This document shows positions 31,422-50,764 of a stretch of DNA of 64,000 bases, in pieces (position 1 is the stretch's first letter; every line of letters starts with the position of its first letter). Source of the stretch: an uncultured Lentisphaerales bacterium. GTDB taxonomy: Bacteria > Verrucomicrobiota > Kiritimatiellia > RFP12 > UBA3636. The notes under the pieces were generated by a model that worked only from the letters and a program-made list of their open reading frames with translations, did no database searches and was not told the DNA's origin. The stretch is from NCBI GenBank assembly GCA_964405775.1, contig CAYOPG010000001.1, forward strand, positions 4,276-68,275, given 5' to 3'. A program made the translations under genes and the position numbers.

Positions 31422-33632
31422 ATGAATAAGGACACATCACCATCTGGGAAGCCTACCGGCGCCGCACTGCAGGTCGGGTGTTTTCCAGAAGGCAAAATTC
31501 CTGTCAAATTCAAAATAGGCAATCAGACGGTCAGGTCGTTTACCAGCCATGACCCCATAGGCGACCGCTATTCCATCGTGTTTGGCTCTACCAACCATTT
31601 GTACGATATCAACGTCTCGTTCGGAGGGCCGTTTGAGCTCTCGCATAATGATTTCGCTGAAATCCTGAGACGGAGCTCCGCTCTACGACACCCATGCCTT
31701 GTCCCTTATTTCGCGTGTGGAGACGACAACGGCGTTATATGGCTCCGTTCAGCGCACAGCGCGGGAGTTTCCGCGCAAAACACTGCGACCTCCGGACTTG
31801 ATGACCACGAAGAGCTAAGCGAAAACGAATTGGCGGACGAAGACGGCAACCGTTGCTTCACCACACTACGATCACTGCTGAACGCTTGCGGGGGGAATCT
31901 AGAAGATGAGGACCGGAACCTGATAATAGGTGATCTGGCTGAAGCTCTTGCTTTTTTACACTCCAATGGCGCTTACGCAGGCACGATAACTCCTGAGACG
32001 ATTTTTCTGGATCGCGTCCGACGTCATTCAGGTATGATCGCTAAGCTTAGATTCTATAACTGGCCAGCAACCGCTACACCCGAGCTAATCGCCAAAGATC
32101 TCTCGCAGGCAGGAGAGATCATTGCGCTACTTGTAGGCGCCGGCAACAGGCATGGCTCACAAACCGCACAAAAACTCATTAGGCTTTCTGAACAATTGCG
32201 CTCTCCGCTCCCTGAAATGACGGGAATGGATTTTCTGAGCGCTTTAACAGATACGATCAAGTTACATCGCACACCTCGGCATTTGAAAAAAACGGCTAGC
32301 GACACTGCGAAGACCACTATTGGATCCAGTACGGGCGGAGCCGATCCCGATGATGCCGGAGCTGCTACAGGCAAGATACACCACCTCTCACACCAAGGCA
32401 GGGAACAGCGCCGCGTGCGAAGACACAAGAAAACCGCCCGAATCGGCATTCTTGATTTAGCCGATGACAGAGTAAAAAAAGCAGTCACGATGTTTGCCGT
32501 GATTCTTGTATTCGCTGCTATAATCCTCACAGCTTTTGGAATATACTACGGGGTGAAATACTTTGACCACAGACGCATTCTCTATCAAAGGCTTGAAGAA
32601 CCGAGAGGGTTCTCCCCTGTCACAGTTCTAGATGCCGAGACAGGAAAGGCGTTTACAGAGACGCAGATTAATGTGGACTATTTCACTGCCGATCAACTTC
32701 AGGCAGCCGTTGTAGAAGGTGATTCCGCCGCTGCGGCACGGCTATGCGTGACTCGCGTGCTCGAGGCTCCGTCAGATCTCCAGGTTCGCGCCGAATCCAT
32801 CGCCGTCCTGACGCCACTTCTTGAGAACCTCGAATCGCGTGCCCAAGCGGAGCCGTCCGCTGCATACTGGCGAGCGTGCGCGATCATGCTCGCCATCGCA
32901 GGGGAACCGGACTACGAAGCCGCCGTCTCCAACCTGCAGTCCGCTTCAAGTTCGGGGCATATCAACGCGAAAGTGTTGTTGGGAGACTGGTACGCCACGC
33001 GCCGTTCCGTCCCGAATACAGAGGATGACCGCAAGGCTCTTTCACTTTGGCTTGAGGCATCCGGGGCGGGCGATTCCGAAACACGCCAGAACGTAGCAGG
33101 ACGGATAATAAAATTCGTCAGGGAAGGACGTGGATTCAATAAAGGCGACACCGCTCCAGTTGATTTCATCCGTTCTGTCGCTACCGGAGGAACCCCAGAA
33201 GCTATGATGATGATGGCGGACGTATACGAGGAAGGCATCTACGTCGAACAGAGCTACGCGACCGCCCTTTCGTGGCTCCGGGATCTAGCTTCAAACATGA
33301 ACGCGGCATTTTACTTGCGTTCAGAAGCGCAGCGACGCATGGCCGAAATGTTTGCAGTCGGCAGAGGTTCGCCACAATCAGACACGGCAGCACGGACGTG
33401 GTACGCACGTGCCGCGTCACTTGGAAACGCAGAGGCGATGAAGGCGTTTGCGGATTTTCTAGAGACAGGCAGAGGCGGTGGTGAAGGCGAATCAGACACT
33501 GAGGCGGCAAAAGAATGGCGCTTGAAGGCTGAGACCGCCGCCCCACCTCCGGCTCCGGATGACACTTTCAAGTTTATAACCGCGGTGCGCACTTCCGCGG
33601 CAGTTTTCAACGACCAATCCACAAAACAATGA
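31422..33632 (+). CDS. membrane-spanning protein: N-terminal degenerate protein-kinase-like domain, one TM helix, C-terminal Sel1/TPR-like repeats
   Basis: Kinase-like landmarks with catalytic residues replaced: LRHPCLVPYF, AFLHSNGAYAGTITPETIFLD (HRD/LKPEN positions), IAKLRFYN (DFG position). TM helix VTMFAVILVFAAIILTAFGIYYGV. Sel1-like repeats DWYATRRSV..., MMMADVYEEGIYVEQSYATALSWL, RTWYARAASLGNAEAMKAFADFL. Confidence 0.6.
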   Translation: MNKDTSPSGKPTGAALQVGCFPEGKIPVKFKIGNQTVRSFTSHDPIGDRYSIVFGSTNHLYDINVSFGGPFELSHNDFAEILRRSSALRHPCLVPYFACGDDNGVIWLRSAHSAGVSAQNTATSGLDDHEELSENELADEDGNRCFTTLRSLLNACGGNLEDEDRNLIIGDLAEALAFLHSNGAYAGTITPETIFLDRVRRHSGMIAKLRFYNWPATATPELIAKDLSQAGEIIALLVGAGNRHGSQTAQKLIRLSEQLRSPLPEMTGMDFLSALTDTIKLHRTPRHLKKTASDTAKTTIGSSTGGADPDDAGAATGKIHHLSHQGREQRRVRRHKKTARIGILDLADDRVKKAVTMFAVILVFAAIILTAFGIYYGVKYFDHRRILYQRLEEPRGFSPVTVLDAETGKAFTETQINVDYFTADQLQAAVVEGDSAAAARLCVTRVLEAPSDLQVRAESIAVLTPLLENLESRAQAEPSAAYWRACAIMLAIAGEPDYEAAVSNLQSASSSGHINAKVLLGDWYATRRSVPNTEDDRKALSLWLEASGAGDSETRQNVAGRIIKFVREGRGFNKGDTAPVDFIRSVATGGTPEAMMMMADVYEEGIYVEQSYATALSWLRDLASNMNAAFYLRSEAQRRMAEMFAVGRGSPQSDTAARTWYARAASLGNAEAMKAFADFLETGRGGGEGESDTEAAKEWRLKAETAAPPPAPDDTFKFITAVRTSAAVFNDQSTKQ

Positions 33633-35995: not shown

Positions 35996-37209
35996 CTACA
36001 AAGCTCTGGACATATTTCGGAGAGCCGCTTCGCAAGATAAGGGGTAGAGCCCCATTCGTCGCGCAAATCAAGGTATTCGGAAAGCGCTGTTTCCAAACCT
36101 GCCCGAGACGTCCTTACAGCTCGTATCATTATGTTGCGGGCGGTGGCTTCTGGCTCTATGAATTCGACGACGTTAGCACGGTATCCCATAATGCGCAGTA
36201 TCTGTGCGCGGAAAGCATCGGTCAGGATATCAGCAAGTCTCTCGCGCAGAATTCCGTTGCGCAGAACAGCGCGGTTGCGCCCGGTGGTGCCGAGTTGCGA
36301 ATGTAGCTCGTGCTGACAACATGGAGCGCACAGAATTGCACGCGCAGAATGTTCGACACCGAAAGCCATCGCCTCGTCGGTGGCAGTATCACAGGCATGC
36401 AGGCTCATTACAATGTCCGGCTCGGCAACGGGTTTGAAGACGCCGATGTCGGATGCAATGAAACATGCACCGCTTTCATCCCACCCCAAAGACTCGGCCA
36501 TTCTACGGCACGACCGGATGATTTTTTCGTTTATGTCTATACCTGTGAGCTTAATTTCAACACCGCGCGTTGCCTCAAGATAGGCTTTGGCCGAAAACGA
36601 AAGGTATGACTTTCCGCAACCCGCGTCGAAAAGCTGAATGGGGGTGTTTTGTTCGAACTTAAGGGCATCAAGCGTGGCGTCGATAATGCGGAGGAATTCA
36701 TTGACTTGGCGGTATTTAGCCCGCATGGTCGGTTTGATCTCGCCCTCTGGATCAGAAAGCCCGATGACCAAGAGCAACTTCGATGAATCGAATCTCGTAA
36801 GGGGATAGTCTTTTTCCCGGTTATGCGATCTTGATGCTGCGGGGTCACGGTTTAAGTTAGACTTGCTCCTCGAAATGAGAACACGTCCCTTTTTCGAAAC
36901 ACGGCAATGCAGATCTCGGTCAGACGTCATTACATGAGCCTCTGAGAGCGGGATTCCGCTCATCAGTTCCGACATTTTTTTCATGGCCTCGCCGCGCTGC
37001 AGATTTTCCGATTCAGAAGCGCGGGTGAACTGCCAAACTTCGCCGTCCTTTACCTCTACAATGCGGAGCTTCAGTTCGTTATTTGATCCGGGGCCGACTG
37101 GCTCCTTGAATTTTAAAACCGCGGATATGAACGATTGCACGTCGAAAATCATCTTTATGATTTCACGTGATGCCGCTTTCTTTTCTTGCTGGAAATCTTG
37201 CGTTTTCAA
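35992..37209 (-). CDS. class I SAM-dependent methyltransferase (Methyltransf_32-like)
   Basis: 405 aa. Motif I LFDAGCGKSYLSF. The stop overlaps the radC stop in the palindrome CTAG (convergent). Confidence 0.7.
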   Translation of the reverse strand: MKTQDFQQEKKAASREIIKMIFDVQSFISAVLKFKEPVGPGSNNELKLRIVEVKDGEVWQFTRASESENLQRGEAMKKMSELMSGIPLSEAHVMTSDRDLHCRVSKKGRVLISRSKSNLNRDPAASRSHNREKDYPLTRFDSSKLLLVIGLSDPEGEIKPTMRAKYRQVNEFLRIIDATLDALKFEQNTPIQLFDAGCGKSYLSFSAKAYLEATRGVEIKLTGIDINEKIIRSCRRMAESLGWDESGACFIASDIGVFKPVAEPDIVMSLHACDTATDEAMAFGVEHSARAILCAPCCQHELHSQLGTTGRNRAVLRNGILRERLADILTDAFRAQILRIMGYRANVVEFIEPEATARNIMIRAVRTSRAGLETALSEYLDLRDEWGSTPYLAKRLSEICPELCS

Positions 37210-38444
37210 AAGAATTTACCTACACCTAGTCGGAGCGAAGTCTCCGTTCCGAAAGACACGCCACCGCCGACGATATAGTCGGCAAAAGGAGAATACCAAC
37301 CCGAGAAAAGTATTCCCACAGGATCTGTCCGTTCGGCGTTTAGGTCGTAATGCTGGTCAGCTATATCGAGCGAACCACTGTAGCTCACGTCCGTGTAGGC
37401 ATCAACGAAAAGGTATGCCCCTACGCCCCAGAAGTGCGATGTATAATCAATGCCACCGATGAGGGAGAAAGTGAATTCTCCCATGTCTACCTCTTCCGAG
37501 TAATTCGTGAAAGTGTATTCGTAAACAGTTGATTCCGCTGTTCCCGGCGTTTCTGGAGTTGCGGGGATTTCCGGCACTACGTATTCACCGCTTTTATTAA
37601 AAACGGTCGCGTTCATATCAAGCGTCGTAGTCTCGTAAGAGGTCATTGCGCCTAAATTCGCATTCCAGTTGCCGTCAATGACGAACGAATACACGTAGCC
37701 AATCCTGCCTCCCATGCCAGAGCCACCATCGAGATTTAGATCCGAGAGATAAGTCCTGTCCGGCACTATGCCACCGCTCGTCTTTGCATCTGTAACCACA
37801 TAGATATCCGCAAACCAATTGCGCCATGTAGCCGACAGTCCAAGGCGGGTAATCTCTATATCCTCTCCGCCGCTTCCAGTATAGTCTCCGACATTCCAGT
37901 CGTATTTTACTGTGTGGATCGGCTCTATCCACACAAGCCCAGCTGCAGGATAAGTGCGCGGTGTGACGGTGAGGTCACCAAAAACAGTCCTATATGCGCC
38001 GGGGTTAGTGCTAGGCAACGGAGCGGGCTCCCAGCGCTGCGGTCTTGCAACGTCTGGTGCGACCGGCTCAGGATCGCCAGAACGCGACATGACAATGGGA
38101 GGTGGAGGAGTGCTCTCGTCTCCGTGAAATTCGCCGATCCGTGAGATCGCCATCGCAAACCCGCCCAAGTCAACTATGCGGTTGAGCACGAAATCATACG
38201 GCCCGTGACGTCGTTCCGTGACTGAATCCGCGAACAAAATCTCTTGCGGGCGCGAGGCGAGAATCGTCCACTCCTTCCCTCCCGCAGTGAATTTGACACC
38301 CGGTTTTTTGACAATAGGCCCCAACGTGTCTCGCGTGACCGTGGACGTTAGCCAGAACGTCTTGTACTCTTCGGCGTTGGCGGTCATGCCGACTGCCGCA
38401 AACACCAGCGTCAAAGCAACAATAAAGCTAATTTTATTTTTCAT
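37206..38444 (-). CDS. outer-membrane beta-barrel protein (hypothetical) with signal peptide
   Basis: MKNKISFIVALTLVFAAVGMTANA signal peptide. Pro-rich linker. Alternating hydrophobic beta-strands. C-terminal ...LRLGVGKFF with terminal Phe. Confidence 0.6.
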   Translation of the reverse strand: MKNKISFIVALTLVFAAVGMTANAEEYKTFWLTSTVTRDTLGPIVKKPGVKFTAGGKEWTILASRPQEILFADSVTERRHGPYDFVLNRIVDLGGFAMAISRIGEFHGDESTPPPPIVMSRSGDPEPVAPDVARPQRWEPAPLPSTNPGAYRTVFGDLTVTPRTYPAAGLVWIEPIHTVKYDWNVGDYTGSGGEDIEITRLGLSATWRNWFADIYVVTDAKTSGGIVPDRTYLSDLNLDGGSGMGGRIGYVYSFVIDGNWNANLGAMTSYETTTLDMNATVFNKSGEYVVPEIPATPETPGTAESTVYEYTFTNYSEEVDMGEFTFSLIGGIDYTSHFWGVGAYLFVDAYTDVSYSGSLDIADQHYDLNAERTDPVGILFSGWYSPFADYIVGGGVSFGTETSLRLGVGKFF

Positions 38445-40889: not shown

Positions 40890-41195
40890 ATGCTTTCGAC
40901 ACTACTCAAAACCTTCGGCACTGTTTTCGTGGCAGAGCTGGGAGACAAGACACAGCTGACCTGCATGGGATTCGCATCGACCGATCCTGGACAACGTCTG
41001 TGGATATTCCTCGGCTCAGCGCTTGCGCTTGCGGTTTCTTCCGCAATAGCAGTGTACTTCGGCTGCCAGATCCAGAAATTCGTAAGTCCCAAAACAATTA
41101 AAATCATTGCCGGCACTGTCTTCATAATTTTCGGGATTATATATCTGAGTGAAGCTTTTTTGGGCGATCCTCCCCTCCCGCCACCCGAAGCATAG
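40890..41195 (+). CDS. UPF0016 (GDT1/TMEM165) family cation transporter, single-repeat (half-size) form
   Basis: 101 aa, 3 TM. Signature E-x-G-D-K-T (AELGDKTQL). Confidence 0.75.
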   Translation: MLSTLLKTFGTVFVAELGDKTQLTCMGFASTDPGQRLWIFLGSALALAVSSAIAVYFGCQIQKFVSPKTIKIIAGTVFIIFGIIYLSEAFLGDPPLPPPEA

Positions 41196-41202
41196 CATAG
41201 CC

Positions 41203-41544
41203 ATGGGAATGAACCGGATTGACGGTCGAAAGGACTGGGTGGACATCCGCAAAGACGACGCCCATGTGGCGCGCGAACGCGAAAAGGCGCGCGAACTTAG
41301 AAAGAGCCAATGGTGGAAAGCCCGTCTGGCAGAAGGCAAATGCCACTATTGCGGAGGTTCGTTCAGGCCGGAAGAGCTGACTATGGATCATGTGATCCCT
41401 GTAGCGCGCGGCGGGAACTCTGTGAAAAGCAACGTTGTGCCTGCATGCGAAAAGTGCAACAAAACAAAAAAACACTTGACGCCAGTGGAGCAGATTCTAA
41501 ACGAAATGGAAGCATCCGGCGAACTATCACCGGCGAATGAATAA
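41203..41544 (+). CDS. small HNH endonuclease
   Basis: CHYCGGSF...DHVIPVARGGNSVKSNVVPACEKCNKTK: HNH motif with a Cys4 zinc finger. Confidence 0.85.
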   Translation: MGMNRIDGRKDWVDIRKDDAHVAREREKARELRKSQWWKARLAEGKCHYCGGSFRPEELTMDHVIPVARGGNSVKSNVVPACEKCNKTKKHLTPVEQILNEMEASGELSPANE

Positions 41545-41561: not shown

Positions 41562-43157
41562 ATGAGAGTTATTCAATGCGATTATCTGGTAGTCGGGAGC
41601 GGGATGGCGGGACTCTCCGCAGCGCGCAATTTATCGAAGCATGGCGAAGTGCTCGTGGTGACGAAAAAAGAGAAGTGGGAGTCCAACACCAACTACGCGC
41701 AAGGCGGCATAGCCTGCGTCATGCTGGAAGACGATTCCTTCGAGATGCACATCGCCGACACTCTCGATGCCGGTGCCGGGTTATGCGACGAGGACGTCGT
41801 TCGCGAGATCGTGAGCGCCGCGCCGGCGCGCATTCAGGAACTGCGCGACATTGGCATGAAGTTCACCGAACGTACGGACACCCTAAATGGAGAACTTGAC
41901 CTCGGGCGCGAAGGAGGCCACTCGAAAAGGCGCATCCTGCACGCTGGCGACATCACGGGCAGGCACATGGAGGAAGTGCTGCTAAAGAACGTCGCCAAAA
42001 ACAAGAAAATCACCATGATGGAGCACACCATGGCGATAGACCTTGTGACGCGCGAAATCAAGGGCAAAACCTCCTGTGTCGGTTGCTATATGCTTGACAC
42101 CAAATCAGGCGAGATTTTCGCAGTCCGCGCGCCATACACAATACTTGCTGCCGGCGGTGCCGGCAAGGTTTACCTCTACACAACAAATCCGGACGTCGCC
42201 ACAGCCGGTGGCATCTCAATAGCATGGCGAGCAGGGGCTGAAATCCGCAACATGGAGTTCGTACAGTTCCATCCCACGTGCCTATACCACCCCGAGGCGA
42301 AAAACTTTCTCATCAGCGAAGCAGTTCGCGGCGAAGGCGCACAGCTTGTCAATGCCGACGGCAGTCCGTTCATGTGGAGATACGATAAGCGCGGCCCCCT
42401 CGCCCCTCGCGACATTGTCGCCAGAGCGATTGACCACGAAATGAAGACGCACGGCATCGAGTGCGTATATCTCGACATTCGCCACAAGGGCAAAGAATTT
42501 CTTCTCAAGCGCTTCCCCAACATATACGAGAAATGCAAATCTTTCGGCATCGACATGGCCACGGATCTTATTCCCGTAGTCCCTGCGGCGCACTACTGCT
42601 GCGGAGGGGTCAAGACAACAGTCGATGGACTCACCAACATCCCCGGTCTGCTGGCTATCGGGGAAACGGCAAGCACCGGACTCCACGGAGCCAACCGCCT
42701 TGCCAGCAACTCGCTTCTTGAAGCGGCGGTCTGCGCCCACAACGCCGCGGAATGGATCGCTGCGCATCCACGCAAGGCCGATATATCCGAGATAGAGATC
42801 CCCGCATGGGTATACGGCGACGCAGTACCGAGCGATGAAAAAGTCGTCGTCTCGCACAACTGGGAAGAAGTGCGGACCTGCATGTGGGACTATGTCGGCA
42901 TCGTTCGCACGGATAAGCGTCTTGACCGAGCCTTGACGCGAATAGCCAACATTCGCCGCGAAATTCATCAATATTACTTCGACTATCTGGTAACCCTTGA
43001 AACACTTGAACTTCGCAATATTGCCGACGCCGCATACCTTATTGTAAAGTCCGCACAGCACCGCAAGGAAAGCCGAGGGCTGCACTACACGCTCGACCAC
43101 CCCAATCTGCTGTCCTACGTGGAAGACACCGTAATACAAAGAGACGCGGCTGTTTGA
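41562..43157 (+). CDS. nadB: L-aspartate oxidase
   Basis: DYLVVGSGMAGLSAA FAD motif. Flavoprotein motif HYCCGGV. 531 aa. Confidence 0.92.
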   Translation: MRVIQCDYLVVGSGMAGLSAARNLSKHGEVLVVTKKEKWESNTNYAQGGIACVMLEDDSFEMHIADTLDAGAGLCDEDVVREIVSAAPARIQELRDIGMKFTERTDTLNGELDLGREGGHSKRRILHAGDITGRHMEEVLLKNVAKNKKITMMEHTMAIDLVTREIKGKTSCVGCYMLDTKSGEIFAVRAPYTILAAGGAGKVYLYTTNPDVATAGGISIAWRAGAEIRNMEFVQFHPTCLYHPEAKNFLISEAVRGEGAQLVNADGSPFMWRYDKRGPLAPRDIVARAIDHEMKTHGIECVYLDIRHKGKEFLLKRFPNIYEKCKSFGIDMATDLIPVVPAAHYCCGGVKTTVDGLTNIPGLLAIGETASTGLHGANRLASNSLLEAAVCAHNAAEWIAAHPRKADISEIEIPAWVYGDAVPSDEKVVVSHNWEEVRTCMWDYVGIVRTDKRLDRALTRIANIRREIHQYYFDYLVTLETLELRNIADAAYLIVKSAQHRKESRGLHYTLDHPNLLSYVEDTVIQRDAAV

Positions 43158-43223
43158 CATTTTAGACCTGTATTCGGAGCAACAGACTCAGCTGCATCCT
43201 GACATGTCGAATAACATGGGGAC

Positions 43224-43260
43224 ACAAAAAAGGCGCCGTAGTTTGAACTACAGCGCCTTG
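43224..43260 (-). terminator. rho-independent terminator (minus-strand orientation; possibly bidirectional)
   Basis: AAGGCGCCGTAG-tttgaa-CTACAGCGCCTT with an A6 run on the plus side (a T-run on the minus strand). Confidence 0.6.
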
Positions 43261-43283
43261 TTCTCTTGTAGGTCTAACCCAAA

Positions 43284-43388
43284 TTAGAACTTAGCTGTAA
43301 CTTCGAAGCGCAGGAATGTGGCGGTGTCTTCTGTCGTGTCGTAGTAATCGCCGTAGTCCAACATTTCGCCCAGCACCGCTCCGCCGAG
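43284..43388 (-). pseudogene. 3'-terminal remnant (34 codons) of an outer-membrane beta-barrel gene
   Basis: Minus-strand frame reads LGGAVLGEMLDYGDYYDTTEDTATFLRFEVTAKF* with the classic OMP C-terminal ...AKF. An in-frame TAG lies immediately upstream. The terminator above follows it. Confidence 0.45.
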
Positions 43389-43603
43389 CTAGAGTCTGTA
43401 AAAGCGGCCCGCCAGCCGATCCTCGATGCAATCAAGCAGTTCGAAGCAGAGTTAGACGGCATGAAGGCCTCCCCTGAAAAACGAGAACTCCGTGCTGAGT
43501 ATAAACATACACGCCAGCTTATCTCAGAGCTACTTGGCCCAATACCTGGTGATCCGACGCCTATTTTGATGCGCTTGGCCAAGGAACCAAAGTTAAACGT
43601 CTC

Positions 43604-44737
43604 GTGTTGCCAAAAACCAGCCACCTTGCAACGCTTGCAACAGCGCTGAACGAGGCTGCCGACAAGCTTGATGAACGAATGAAATCAATGGAGGAGACGA
43701 AGGCGTTTTCCGACACTGTACTTTCAAACATCCCGAGCGGCATCATAACTCTGGACGACGAACTCAATGTCACAATGTACAACGAGGCGGCGGCATACAT
43801 GATGGGATTCACCTCCCCAATACCAACTCCAAACCTAAAGACAGCAAGGATTCAAGATCTCGAACTCATAAAAATCGTCTACGACACCATGAAGACCAAG
43901 TCCCCAGTACGCGGAGAATTCAAGCAAGGTGCCACGGGCAAGAAAGTCATGGACGTTTTCTCGACCACGATGTCTGACTCTAGTGGCAATACCTCGGGGG
44001 TACTCCTGCTCATATCGGACTTGACTACTGTGCGAAGGCTTGAAACTATAAGGCAGGATTTCGTGGGCAACGTGGCGCACGAGTTGCGTACGCCCGTAAC
44101 TTCTATAAGCGGCTTCGCGGAGTTGCTTGGCCGCACAACCCACGACGAACACGGGAAAATCACCCGTTACTCAGCCATAATTCTGCGCCAGGCAAAACAC
44201 ATGGAGACTATAATAAACGACCTCCTATTGCTGGCCAGCCTGGACGACTCCGCCGGTACTGCCATAGAGCAGAAAACCGTAGTCTCAATCAGACAGACGA
44301 TAGATAATGCTGTGGAGCTTTGCGGCGAGCGCGTAGGAATGGAACAAGTAAAGCTCACAGTGCACTGTCCGGACACTCTTGAAGCGACGATACATCAGGG
44401 ACTAATGGAACAGGCAATTGTGAACCTCATTGAAAATGCCGTCAAATACGGTGTAACCCAGAGCAGCGACAAAATCGAAATCTCTGCTGCGAAAGCAGAC
44501 GATGGCACTGTCGAGATCAATGTTACGGATTATGGGAACGGCATACCTGCTGAGCAACAGGAACGCATATTTGAACGATTCTACCGCATCGACAAAGGTC
44601 GTACGCGTGAGAACGGCGGCACGGGATTGGGTCTCTCCATTGTTAAACACATAATGCGTCTACACGCAGGCACGGTTTTTGTGGTCAGCAAACGCGAAGT
44701 CTCAACAACATTCACGCTCAAGTTTCCCAAGGGATGA
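43604..44737 (+). CDS. PhoR-like sensor histidine kinase (PAS-HisKA-HATPase) lacking a transmembrane region
   Basis: PAS (SNIPSGIITLDDELNVTMYNEAA). H-box HELRTPVTSISGFAELL. N/G boxes (NLIENAVKYG..., GGTGLGLSIVKH). GTG start; only ~30 aa precede the PAS domain. Confidence 0.85.
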   Translation: MLPKTSHLATLATALNEAADKLDERMKSMEETKAFSDTVLSNIPSGIITLDDELNVTMYNEAAAYMMGFTSPIPTPNLKTARIQDLELIKIVYDTMKTKSPVRGEFKQGATGKKVMDVFSTTMSDSSGNTSGVLLLISDLTTVRRLETIRQDFVGNVAHELRTPVTSISGFAELLGRTTHDEHGKITRYSAIILRQAKHMETIINDLLLLASLDDSAGTAIEQKTVVSIRQTIDNAVELCGERVGMEQVKLTVHCPDTLEATIHQGLMEQAIVNLIENAVKYGVTQSSDKIEISAAKADDGTVEINVTDYGNGIPAEQQERIFERFYRIDKGRTRENGGTGLGLSIVKHIMRLHAGTVFVVSKREVSTTFTLKFPKG

Positions 44738-44750
44738 TTGAGTTAGCAGC

Positions 44751-44815
44751 TTTATCACAGCACAGCAAACAGACTGGCATTCCTAACAAAAAACTAACGC
44801 GATGTTTATCACAGC
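44751..44815. promoter_or_regulatory. two identical 11-mers TTTATCACAGC (reverse complement GCTGTGATAAA, Pho-box-like) 54 bp apart upstream of pstS
   Basis: 44751-44761 and 44805-44815. Reverse complement resembles the CTGTCATAAA half-site of the Pho box. Confidence 0.4.
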
Positions 44816-44890
44816 CTAGCGTCCGTATTGTTTAATATGCGGCAACCCAGCAAAAGGCGGGCAACAACAAATCAACAAAGGGCAAACAAT

Positions 44891-45820
44891 ATGAACAAAT
44901 CAATCAACAAGACAATACTCACAGCTGCAGCCGCTGCTAGCATAATGCTAAGCGCTGGAGCGGCAGAACAGAAACTCACTCTCGACGGCTCCACCACCGT
45001 GGGACCGATCGCCAAGGCTTTCGCGGAATACATGATGGGGCAAGACAAGGAAGTCAATATCACGGTCAGCGAATCAGGTAGCGGCAACGGCGCAAAAGCG
45101 CTTCTAAACGGAACATGCGACATTGCGACTCTCTCCCGCGACCTGAAGAGTTCAGAAAAAGAAGCCATGGAAGCCAAGGGCGTAACGCCCGTTAAGCACG
45201 TGTGCGCACTCGACGCTTTGCCCGTCATCGTCCACCAGTCCAATAAAGTTAAAGGCCTCACTATAGAGCAGATCCGCGATATATACACTGGCAAGATCAC
45301 AAACTGGAAGGAAGTCGGCGGATTCGACAAGAAAATCGTCGTCATCAGCCGTGACACGAACAGTGGCACGTACGAGACCTTCTCGGAAATCGTCGTTGGG
45401 AAAGACAACAAGGTTGTTTCCAGCGCGGAATACACGGGAAGCAACGGTGCCGTGCGCCAGCGCGTACAGACAACCGAAGGCGCAATTGGATACGTCGGCC
45501 TAGGTTTCGCTGACAGCACAATAAAGGTACTCGAAGTCAATGGCGTCAAGCCCTCCGTCGAGACGGTGTTCAGCAAGAAGTACCCCATCAGCCGCGAACT
45601 GTACATGTTCACTAACGGCGAACCAAAAGAAGGTTCACTGGCGGCTCGCTACCTCGCCCTCATCACCTCAGAAGAAGGCTCGGAAATGGTTGAGGAAATT
45701 GGGTATATTTCCATGACTGCCGGCGCCAAGAAGGCGGCAACCGAAGCGACCTGCCCCAAATGCGGCACAAAGTTCCCTGTTGACTCCAAAGAGACCGCAG
45801 AGGTCAAAGAAACCAAATAA
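44891..45820 (+). CDS. pstS: phosphate ABC transporter substrate-binding protein PstS family (orphan)
   Basis: Signal peptide MNKSINKTILTAAAAASIMLSAGAA. LTLDGSTTVGPIA...SESGSGNGAKAL...ATLSRDL...VISRDTNSGTYETF. ATG at 44891. Confidence 0.88.
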   Translation: MNKSINKTILTAAAAASIMLSAGAAEQKLTLDGSTTVGPIAKAFAEYMMGQDKEVNITVSESGSGNGAKALLNGTCDIATLSRDLKSSEKEAMEAKGVTPVKHVCALDALPVIVHQSNKVKGLTIEQIRDIYTGKITNWKEVGGFDKKIVVISRDTNSGTYETFSEIVVGKDNKVVSSAEYTGSNGAVRQRVQTTEGAIGYVGLGFADSTIKVLEVNGVKPSVETVFSKKYPISRELYMFTNGEPKEGSLAARYLALITSEEGSEMVEEIGYISMTAGAKKAATEATCPKCGTKFPVDSKETAEVKETK

Positions 45821-49591: not shown

Positions 49592-50632
49592 CTACAAAAA
49601 GCGTTGAAGGGCAAGCTCGGCGATGTTTATCCTAACCTCCTGTGCCTTGTCGTGGTCGCCTGTGCTGCGGTATGTTAAGACGATCACATATAGTTGCTTC
49701 TCAGGGTCAATCCAAACGGTGTTTCCAGTCCATCCGGTGTGGCTAAGAGTGCGGCTGGAAAGCGAGGGGGCATTGTATCTGGAGTCCACACGCCATCCGA
49801 AAGCGACTGGCGAACGCATGTCAGGACGCGTTCCGAGAAAATCAACAACGTCCTCCGATAGGATGCGCCTTCCATCATATTCGCCTCTTGCCAGCATCAT
49901 TCGGCAGAAAACAGTTATGTCAGCGGCTGTCGAAAAAAGCCCGGCATTCCCTACAGGATGCAGAGCGTTACGTGCGGGAGGATCGCTGGCAATACCGAAT
50001 GTGTCATACTCGGAGTAACGTATCACTCGCGAAGGATCGGGATTTGGAAGCGGCGCCCAGCGCGAGTCTGTCATTCCAAGAGGGCTGAAAATGTTTTCGA
50101 CGCAAATCGAGTTCAGATCCGAGCCTAGAATCCGCTCGGCGATGATCCCAAGCAGGATGTAGTTGCCGCAAGAGTATTCGTACATTTCGCCAACAGGCCG
50201 AATGGGACCGAAATCAAGTATGCGCTCGACAACCTCTCCGACAACGTCGTATGGTTTCTGGTTTGGGAAGCCGGAGATATGGCGAGAGAGGTCGCGGATG
50301 GTAACAGGCTCCCTCAGCTTCCCCCTGTAATCAGGAAGATATTTTGTAAACGGGGCGTCAGGATCCAGAAGGCCGCGCCCCATGCACTGCGCTAGGACCG
50401 TGGTAGTACCAACGACTTTTGTTACGCTTGCCAAATCGAAAATGGCGTTAGCGGGCATCCTCACGGTATGTACGGCATCTATCCATCCGAAAGGTTTTAT
50501 AAAGCTCGTCCCTTCGGACGTACCGACTGCCAGCACACCTCCGGCGTTCCATCCCTCCATGACAGTCCGATCCAAGTATTCATCAAGCGCGCTCTTTCCA
50601 CCACGATTCTCGAGTTCAATAGTTCCCGACAT
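49592..50632 (-). CDS. serine hydrolase, beta-lactamase class C / PBP4-like family
   Basis: SxxK motif SVTK. YSC and HTG motifs (YEYSCGNY, LSHTGWTGN). Start at ATG 50632 with AGGGGG RBS. Confidence 0.8.
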   Translation of the reverse strand: MSGTIELENRGGKSALDEYLDRTVMEGWNAGGVLAVGTSEGTSFIKPFGWIDAVHTVRMPANAIFDLASVTKVVGTTTVLAQCMGRGLLDPDAPFTKYLPDYRGKLREPVTIRDLSRHISGFPNQKPYDVVGEVVERILDFGPIRPVGEMYEYSCGNYILLGIIAERILGSDLNSICVENIFSPLGMTDSRWAPLPNPDPSRVIRYSEYDTFGIASDPPARNALHPVGNAGLFSTAADITVFCRMMLARGEYDGRRILSEDVVDFLGTRPDMRSPVAFGWRVDSRYNAPSLSSRTLSHTGWTGNTVWIDPEKQLYVIVLTYRSTGDHDKAQEVRINIAELALQRFL

Positions 50633-50764
50633 ACAATCCCCCCTGTTATAAAATTTTAACTTTGAGCATAGATGATAAGCTAATAACACCCTCTGGGGAA
50701 GTACAAATAATTGGGATATCCCACTGGGAATTCAGAAACAAACCACTGAACATTCAGACGCATA

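Follow-up and report, generated by a model that had tools for sequence, protein, structure and literature searches.

A gene-decay scar between nadB and pstS most probably left by two successive deletions at short direct repeats

What has happened to the DNA between the L-aspartate oxidase gene nadB and a histidine kinase gene that appears to lack a membrane anchor? This question is raised by the ~450 bases at positions 43158–43603 of the 64-kb stretch of DNA analysed here (the window), which separate nadB from the kinase open reading frame (ORF). The initial annotation, made from the sequence alone, had recognised here the C-terminus of an outer-membrane protein (OMP) cut off by an in-frame TAG, and had suggested that most of the OMP gene, and possibly the N-terminus of the kinase, was lost at a deletion or recombination junction. 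Comparison with an intact allele from a closely related strain confirmed the deletion and both of these losses, but resolved two junctions (J1 and J2) instead of one, and a loss that is larger and extends to the phosphate uptake and regulatory genes in between. We consider it very probable that the interval is a gene-decay scar formed by two successive deletions between short direct repeats, of which the leftovers are most probably non-functional.

The intact allele and the two deletions

A protein search with the window kinase identified P0001, a protein of 601 aa which is 99% identical over all 377 residues of the window kinase. The other 119 homologues listed were, next to a few shorter entries, nearly all ~580–620 aa in length, and since this applies to nearly all of the 120 listed, the 377-aa form is the derived one. 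P0001 is carried on a 10.4-kb contig (L001) from a 99%-identical strain, which contains the 3′ part of nadB, a convergent gene for a 493-aa OMP on the minus strand, and subsequently pstC, pstA, pstB, phoU, phoB, phoR (encoding the 601-aa protein) and pstS, with the full-length PstA passing the TIGR00974 cutoff (268.9 bits vs 193.45). The intact OMP gene and the full-length kinase, which alignment to close relatives had been expected to reveal, are hence found on a single contig.

Comparison of L001 with the window by blastn gave exactly three collinear blocks, which overlap at short repeats only. The first block joins L001 1–1331 with window 42063–43393 (98.9% identity), the second L001 4197–4389 with window 43383–43575 (99.5% identity), and the third L001 8181–10433 with window 43566–45818 (99.8% identity). 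Together they tile window 42063–45818 with zero unaligned bases, and there was no inserted or mobile-element DNA at the junctions. The 8-bp sequence GCCGAGCT is present at L001 positions 1321 and 4197, 2,876 bp apart, with a single copy in the window at 43383–43390, within J1 (43383–43393), while the 10-bp sequence TTGATGCGCT is present at L001 positions 4380 and 8181, 3,801 bp apart, with a single copy at 43566–43575, which constitutes J2. An exact match of 8 or 10 bp at an arbitrary junction has, by our arithmetic, a probability of ~4^-8 to 4^-10, and the repeats are therefore taken to belong to the deletion event, and not to be a coincidence. A total of 6,677 bp (2,876 + 3,801) is thus missing from the window, comprising ~93% of the OMP gene, the whole of pstC, most of pstA, the whole of pstB, phoU and phoB, and codons 1–212 of phoR. 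The three genes lost in part, encoding the OMP, PstA and PhoR, retain 34 of 493, 64 of ~500 and 389 of 601 codons (residues 213–601), respectively.

The left flank of the scar is formed by the intact nadB gene (41562–43157, plus strand), which matches the Pfam families FAD_binding_2 (4e-91) and Succ_DH_flav_C, and is collinear with L001 1–1095. It is followed by the remnant of the OMP gene (43284–43388, minus strand), consisting of the last 34 codons and the stop codon, in a frame that reads Leu-stop-LGGAVLGEMLDYGDYYDTTEDTATFLRFEVTAKF-stop, with the stop codon at 43284–43286 and an in-frame TAG at 43389–43391. Its 34 residues were 100% identical to residues 460–493 of the 493-aa OMP of L001 in a tblastn search. 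The TAG that ends the frame upstream is present as described in the initial annotation, with the refinement that the junction itself makes it: the pstA side contributes the A at 43391, and the intact OMP gene has AAG (Lys) at this position. The hairpin with T-run that had been noted downstream of the remnant was likewise recovered, as an intrinsic terminator of the lost OMP gene (43220–43259, minus strand), with a hairpin at 43230–43259 that has a 13-bp stem with 7 GC pairs, and a U-tract at 43220–43229, giving the minus-strand tail TTTTGTGTCC. Folded as RNA, the hairpin has a free energy of -31 kcal/mol (z = -5.8 vs shuffled sequences). It is located between the convergent nadB and OMP genes, within a block aligned to L001. 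In L001 the OMP gene 5′ of it is intact, and in the window it remains as an orphan terminator on the minus strand.

Between both deletions lies a stranded 193-bp internal fragment of pstA (43383–43575, plus strand; 99.5% identity to L001 4197–4389). The plus-strand frame 43389–43649, which contains ...VKAARQPILDAIKQFEAELDGMKASPEKRELRAEYKHTRQLISELLG... and ...VKAARQPILDAIKQFEAELDGMKASPEKRELRAEYKHTRQLISELLGPIPGDPTPILMRL... and had previously been read as a piece of a helical protein, could be identified by its 98% identity to residues 123–186 of PstA. This fragment and the 34-aa remnant, each searched by itself, gave no family match. The fragment is joined at J2 to a truncated phoR (phoR′, 43566–44737, plus strand), with homology starting from codon 213 of 601 and an earliest possible start at GTG 43604, giving the 377-aa ORF.

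The OMP gene itself was linked with pst and pho genes both at this locus and in a ~60%-identical relative, and this linkage makes it plausible, as far as gene order can indicate, that the protein would be an anion or phosphate channel rather than serve in alginate export. The initial annotation had also pointed to a full OMP with a similar ending encoded at 37206–38444 (minus strand), for which our searches gave no support: this 412-aa ORF has no Pfam or NCBIfam match, and a similarity to the deleted OMP could not be detected. A second lineage described below has conserved it, at 405–410 aa.

L001 and the window are not equally similar throughout. In nadB (42063–43157) they differ by ~1%, with 13 substitutions clustered at 42125–42509, and all strains with the deletions match the window exactly in this region, while phoR-pstS of L001 is only 0.2% different. 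Given this difference in divergence, either L001 is no direct ancestor or nadB has recombined.

Reality of the scar and order of the deletions

The sequence appears to be of metagenome type, and microhomology joins can arise as chimeric reads, which raises the concern that the scar is an assembly or amplification artefact, created by a chimeric join in one metagenome assembly. Exact look-ups using the window kinase and NadB proteins identified 12 other assemblies, from 12 samples, in which nadB is directly followed by a 376/377-aa kinase and pstS. Both junctions are at the same positions in these assemblies (L002–L005 and L008–L015), and are identical apart from an A/T variant at 43391. The assemblies derive from two pipelines (ENA/SPAdes and Logan) and include contigs of 45–75 kb at ~15x coverage. 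They differ by scattered single nucleotide polymorphisms (SNPs) and a 4-bp indel, and because the SNPs differ among them, they are independent and no copies of one assembly. The related contig L006, with 1.2x coverage and a mosaic left end, does fit the pattern expected of an artefact, but with the same junctions present in 12 other assemblies such an origin of the scar is effectively refuted, and the scar is real. An exact scan of JGI metagenome contigs with a 33-mer across J2 gave no matches. In the 90%-identity cluster, seven truncated sequences represent 29 contigs, vs three full-length sequences on three contigs; L099 is a second intact example.

The order of the two deletions is given by a third type of allele. 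The 8.2-kb contig L113 begins or ends within the OMP gene, which is therefore incomplete, and further contains pstC, a 205-aa PstA′ fusion, the 377-aa kinase, pstS and nfo. It is 99.86% identical to L001 1546–4389, after which it jumps to 8181, so that J2 is present and J1 absent. The same J2 fusion is found in L006, and is shown by the PstA′ fusion proteins P0265 and P0266, one of which is from a JGI contig and the other from a Logan contig. Since these J2-only alleles exist (L113, L006), J2 came earlier and J1 arose later on the J2 background. The evidence for the intermediate comes mainly from L113 and the fusion proteins, because L006 combines its low coverage with a mosaic left end, and we rejected L006 as sole evidence of the intermediate for this same combination (1.2x coverage, mosaic first 88 nt).

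We propose that the ancestor would have had, between nadB and pstS, the convergent gene for the 493-aa, alginate-export-like OMP, followed by pstC, pstA, pstB, phoU, phoB and phoR. In a first step, J2 (3,801 bp) would have fused codon ~186 of pstA out of frame to codon ~213 of phoR, thereby removing the 3′ part of pstA, pstB, phoU, phoB, and the part of phoR encoding the membrane anchor and sensor. In a second step on this J2 background, J1 (2,876 bp) would have deleted codons 1 to ~459 of the OMP gene, all of pstC, and pstA in its 5′ part. Because one repeat copy was kept at each junction and no foreign DNA is present, the junction structure points to RecA-independent illegitimate recombination, which may have been replication slippage or template switching.

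The absence of foreign DNA also bears on the question whether the genes were excised by a mobile element or site-specific recombinase, as in deletions mediated by insertion sequences (IS) or in the loss of a genomic island. A mobile cassette could be suspected from the loss of the same operon in two lineages, and a gene for an HNH endonuclease is located just upstream of nadB. This explanation is nevertheless hardly tenable, as the junctions are devoid of IS, integrase, tRNA and inverted repeats as well as of foreign bases, each has retained exactly one direct-repeat copy (8 or 10 bp) inside coding sequence, and the breakpoints are in the middle of ORFs and differ between the two lineages. The HNH gene keeps its position in both lineages, irrespective of whether the operon is intact. 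It encodes 131 aa (window 41149–41544), lies 17 bp upstream of nadB, and has an overlap with the end of a GDT1-family gene; since the ~80%-identical lineage has it at the same position, it is resident and no recent mobile insertion.

Beyond its 8 bp the repeat at J1 is imperfect, with 10/11 positions matching (GCCGAGCT followed by T or A, then GA). At the mismatch, position 43391, the strains L004, L010 and L015 have T, the OMP-side base which does not give the TAG, while the window and the other strains have A. There are ~60 polymorphic sites in ~23 kb among the strains, and as we estimate the chance of this very base being polymorphic for the other parental base at ~10^-3, the dimorphism probably reflects the formation of the junction. 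It may go back to a slippage heteroduplex that was left unrepaired and then segregated, or to J1 having arisen more than once, with a later point mutation being a possible alternative. Pairs of sites with all four allele combinations occur among the strains, such as 40472 with 43515, which means that the strains recombine or that the consensus contigs mix strains, and a clean genealogy of the J1 variants is unobtainable for this reason.

Other variation among the strains was noted outside of the scar. In contig L007, 7 SNPs are clustered within 82 bp (window 32876–32957), which together with the four-combination site pairs suggests homologous recombination between co-existing strains, or contigs that mix strains. 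A 4-bp GACT indel at window 50414–50417, in the gene at 49592–50689 (minus strand), is polymorphic among the 99.9%-identical strains. Strains without the GACT (L002, L003/L007 and L010) have this beta-lactamase-family gene split into two called ORFs, of 263 and 78 aa, and it is one ORF of 346–365 aa in the window, L005 and L008.

Coding capacity of the remaining phoR and pstS sequences

The initial annotation described a kinase that starts from a GTG and is without a transmembrane (TM) region, and this was confirmed: from GTG 43604 onwards, phoR′ shows PAS matches from ~residue 37 (PAS_4, 2e-4), HisKA (1.9e-18) and HATPase_c (1.6e-27), and is 99% identical to residues 213–601 of P0001. The hydrophobic segments of P0001 are at ~16–45 and 168–199 (centres of a 19-residue window at 25–36 and 177–190), both upstream of the break, and phoR′ thus lacks TM1 and TM2, the periplasmic domain, and the first half of the linker that leads to the PAS domain, of which it has kept the last part. 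The NCBIfam equivalog cutoffs are not reached by phoR′ (316 vs 400 for PnpS, 251 vs 334 for phoR_proteo), and full-length P0001 scores similarly, so that its assignment as PhoR relies on gene context. The adjacent phoB and the linkage to pst-phoU, which are present in the intact L001, are missing for phoR′ in the window, and no homologues of pstC, pstA or phoB were found elsewhere in the 64 kb.

The catalytic domains of phoR′ are complete, and the 377-aa ORF and pstS are uninterrupted in all strains with the deletions. Fragments of E. coli PhoR without the membrane region, which are cytoplasmic, retain kinase activity in vitro. The leftovers could therefore be functional, with phoR′ as a soluble, constitutively active PAS-DHp-CA kinase, which may be rewired to another response regulator and act together with the retained pstS, or with the ORF of 30–34 codons as a real small gene. 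We consider this improbable. The cognate phoB was deleted and the window has no phoB-like gene, the plus strand at 42800–44000 did not show a sigma-70-like promoter, and direct reading of the sequence before GTG 43604 showed no evident Shine-Dalgarno-like sequence. The ratio of nonsynonymous to synonymous substitutions is 6:3 in phoR′ (6/9 nonsynonymous) vs 4:11 in nadB (4/15), numbers which are too few to conclude from and are only suggestive of relaxed selection on phoR′. The second lineage has deleted phoR wholly and cut pstS, which argues that neither is needed in this niche. For the small gene, its upstream stop is polymorphic (TAG or AAG), and its homologues in relatives are the C-terminus of OMPs of 456–493 aa, in place of the conserved small gene that a functional ORF would represent. 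The OMP tail has no start codon and has the junction-made TAG at its upstream end, and judging by these features neither the tail nor the pstA piece would be able to encode a functional protein. We conclude that phoR′ is most likely a pseudogene.

The pstS gene (44891–45820, plus strand) encodes an intact phosphate-binding protein, which passes the TIGR02136 cutoff (270.1 bits vs 206.6) and matches PBP_like_2. Upstream of pstS is a candidate Pho box (44783–44798, plus strand), CTAACAAAAAACTAAC, with two CTAAC half-sites 11 bp apart, and the 64 kb of the window hold no other match (0.1 expected by chance). A similar sequence, CTAACAAAATCCTAAC, is located upstream of pstC in L001 (about 2839–2854), and a related sequence, TTAACAAATATCTAAC, upstream of pstS in the phoR-pstS spacer of L102, from the ~80%-identical lineage. 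The candidate Pho box would thus have been left without PhoB, its presumed activator, and pstS, without PhoB and PstCAB, is probably silent or useless. The C-terminus of PstS (window 45730–45820) has an extension of ~30 residues past the binding-protein fold, with the sequence CPKCGTKF and weak zinc-ribbon-like Pfam matches (E ~0.04), which is unusual for a periplasmic binding protein.

Some points weigh against the interpretation as a decayed locus formed by two slippage-type deletions. The ORFs of phoR′ and pstS are intact in all deletion strains, the divergence of these strains is so low (99.9% identity) that decay would not yet show, and we infer the non-functionality of both genes from their sequence and context. 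The view is of 64 kb, and another pst, pit or phoBR locus may be present in the rest of the genome. Slippage and other forms of illegitimate recombination are not distinguishable by sequence alone, and L006, one of the J2-only contigs, has 1.2x coverage and a first 88 nt that resemble the second lineage. With these points taken into account, the strain is probably without high-affinity phosphate uptake and a Pho response as far as they would be encoded at this locus.

Loss in a second lineage, habitat and known systems

A second lineage (L096–L098 and L103–L111), with ~78–84% DNA identity to the window and the same order of flanking genes, has kept an intact gene for a 456-aa OMP next to nadB, and lacks the region from pstC through the 5′ third of pstS, and hence phoR. 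Its junction (...TTTCATCTCGTCAAGC|ACGTCTGCG...) is found in 12 contigs, with breakpoints other than those of the window, and the sequences indicate that this lineage lost the same operon by an independent pstC-to-pstS deletion. Two contigs with 95–96% identity to the second lineage, L102 and L016 (from a "Lentisphaerae bacterium" metagenome-assembled genome, MAG), keep phoB-phoR-pstS or phoR-pstS next to nfo. The remnant of pstS in the second lineage is an ORF of 207 aa in L112 (2955–3578) and only 116 aa in the other contigs, and appears to be decaying further in most strains.

Sample ERZ4240871 has a window-type contig and a second-lineage contig at similar coverage. We considered whether the ~80%-identical loci might be paralogues in one genome, as L002 and L103 are from the same sample and have similar coverage, and judged this unlikely since the synteny spans >13 kb and includes housekeeping genes. 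In L006, positions 1–88 are 97.7% identical to L097 and only ~85% to L001, and the contig is 99.9% L001-like from ~nt 88 onwards, with the switch point at the position of the deletion junction of the second lineage; this mosaic end could be due to recombination between the lineages or be a low-coverage chimera.

Homologues with a named source were from Kiritimatiellia or Lentisphaerae MAGs, and in a comparison of the full-length kinase with GTDB species representatives, the best match was an 84%-identical "Lentisphaerae bacterium" MAG, and the species of the window is not represented. Anaerobic digesters are rich in phosphate. They are also the habitat of these strains: L011, L013, L097, L105 and L109–L111 are from runs SRR8925713–58, which are of digestate from full-scale biogas plants (PMC7842101), and one member of the OMP cluster is from assembly LSQX, a biogas-upgrading reactor assembly (PMC5985405). 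Of the accessions looked up in the literature, the SRR89257xx runs and LSQX were the only ones that could be linked to a study. The loss of the Pho genes is plausibly tolerated, or even favoured, in such phosphate-rich digesters.

Whether the loss of Pst-PhoU-PhoBR in digesters was positively selected, as opposed to neutral decay, is a matter on which we lean towards the negative, and selection is put forward here as a tentative and rather unlikely reading. Bearing on it are the independent deletions of the same operon in two lineages that co-occur in the same reactors, the ~10x larger number of public contigs with the deleted than with the intact allele in the window lineage, and the passage of the loss through a surviving intermediate. 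Single pst or phoU lesions cause a Pho-constitutive state in model bacteria. Under selection, J2 would have removed pstB, phoU, phoB and the sensor part of phoR together, avoiding this harmful state, and possible drivers would be the cost of the system, its toxicity in high phosphate, the entry of toxic oxyanions, or phage use of the OMP or PstS. If this were so, the locus would offer a natural record, resolved in time, of how a regulon is lost adaptively.

In annotations, the 377-aa "histidine kinase" is best labelled a truncated remnant of phoR, and pstS an orphan, and 43158–43603 should be described as pseudogene debris, made up of the OMP tail and the pstA fragment, and neither as intergenic space nor as small genes. 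With the intact, J2-only and double-deletion alleles all present in public metagenomes, the locus is a natural marker for strain turnover, and is also suited to testing whether phosphate supply drives the loss of the Pho regulon.

Several known systems can be compared with the locus. Marine Synechococcus clades I and IV are without phoB and phoR (PMC7522525). The losses described here resemble such loss of phoBR where phosphate is not limiting in being lineage-specific, recurrent and independent, and in affecting the regulator together with linked uptake genes. They differ in being very recent (99.9% strain identity), with breakpoints and intermediates preserved, and in concerning a Kiritimatiellia/Lentisphaerae host in anaerobic digesters, for which we infer the link with phosphate supply.

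The kinase has the PAS, HisKA and HATPase_c domains of the PhoR kinases of pst-phoU-phoBR clusters, with PnpS and PhoR as best NCBIfam matches, and its full-length allele directly follows phoB, phoU and pstB, whereas phoR′ differs from such kinases in having lost both TM segments, the periplasmic domain and half of the linker leading to the PAS domain, and in having no phoB next to it. The deleted OMP is comparable to AlgE-like PF13372 barrels in its aromatic-rich C-terminus with terminal Phe, and its homologues (45–89% identity) mostly carry precomputed PF13372 matches, with "alginate export family protein" as their NCBI name. Unlike these barrels, the OMP of L001 itself only gave a weak OMP_b-brl match in hmmscan (E = 0.016), with no PF13372 match at E<=1 and no NCBIfam match.

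Deletions between short direct repeats, by slippage or illegitimate recombination, were classically described for lacI of E. coli. The deletions described here share with these the retention of one 8–10-bp repeat copy, the absence of an insert, the kilobase scale, and endpoints inside genes. They are unlike the classical deletions in that two of them are adjacent, with a 193-bp island in between, that all three stages are found in natural populations, and that J1 has two variants at the single mismatch of an imperfect repeat. The kind of event, a microhomology deletion with gene decay, is thus already known, and the current mechanistic understanding is unchanged; the initial interpretation is extended here by the population-level polymorphism with a surviving intermediate, and by the finding that a related lineage sharing the habitat lost the operon in parallel.

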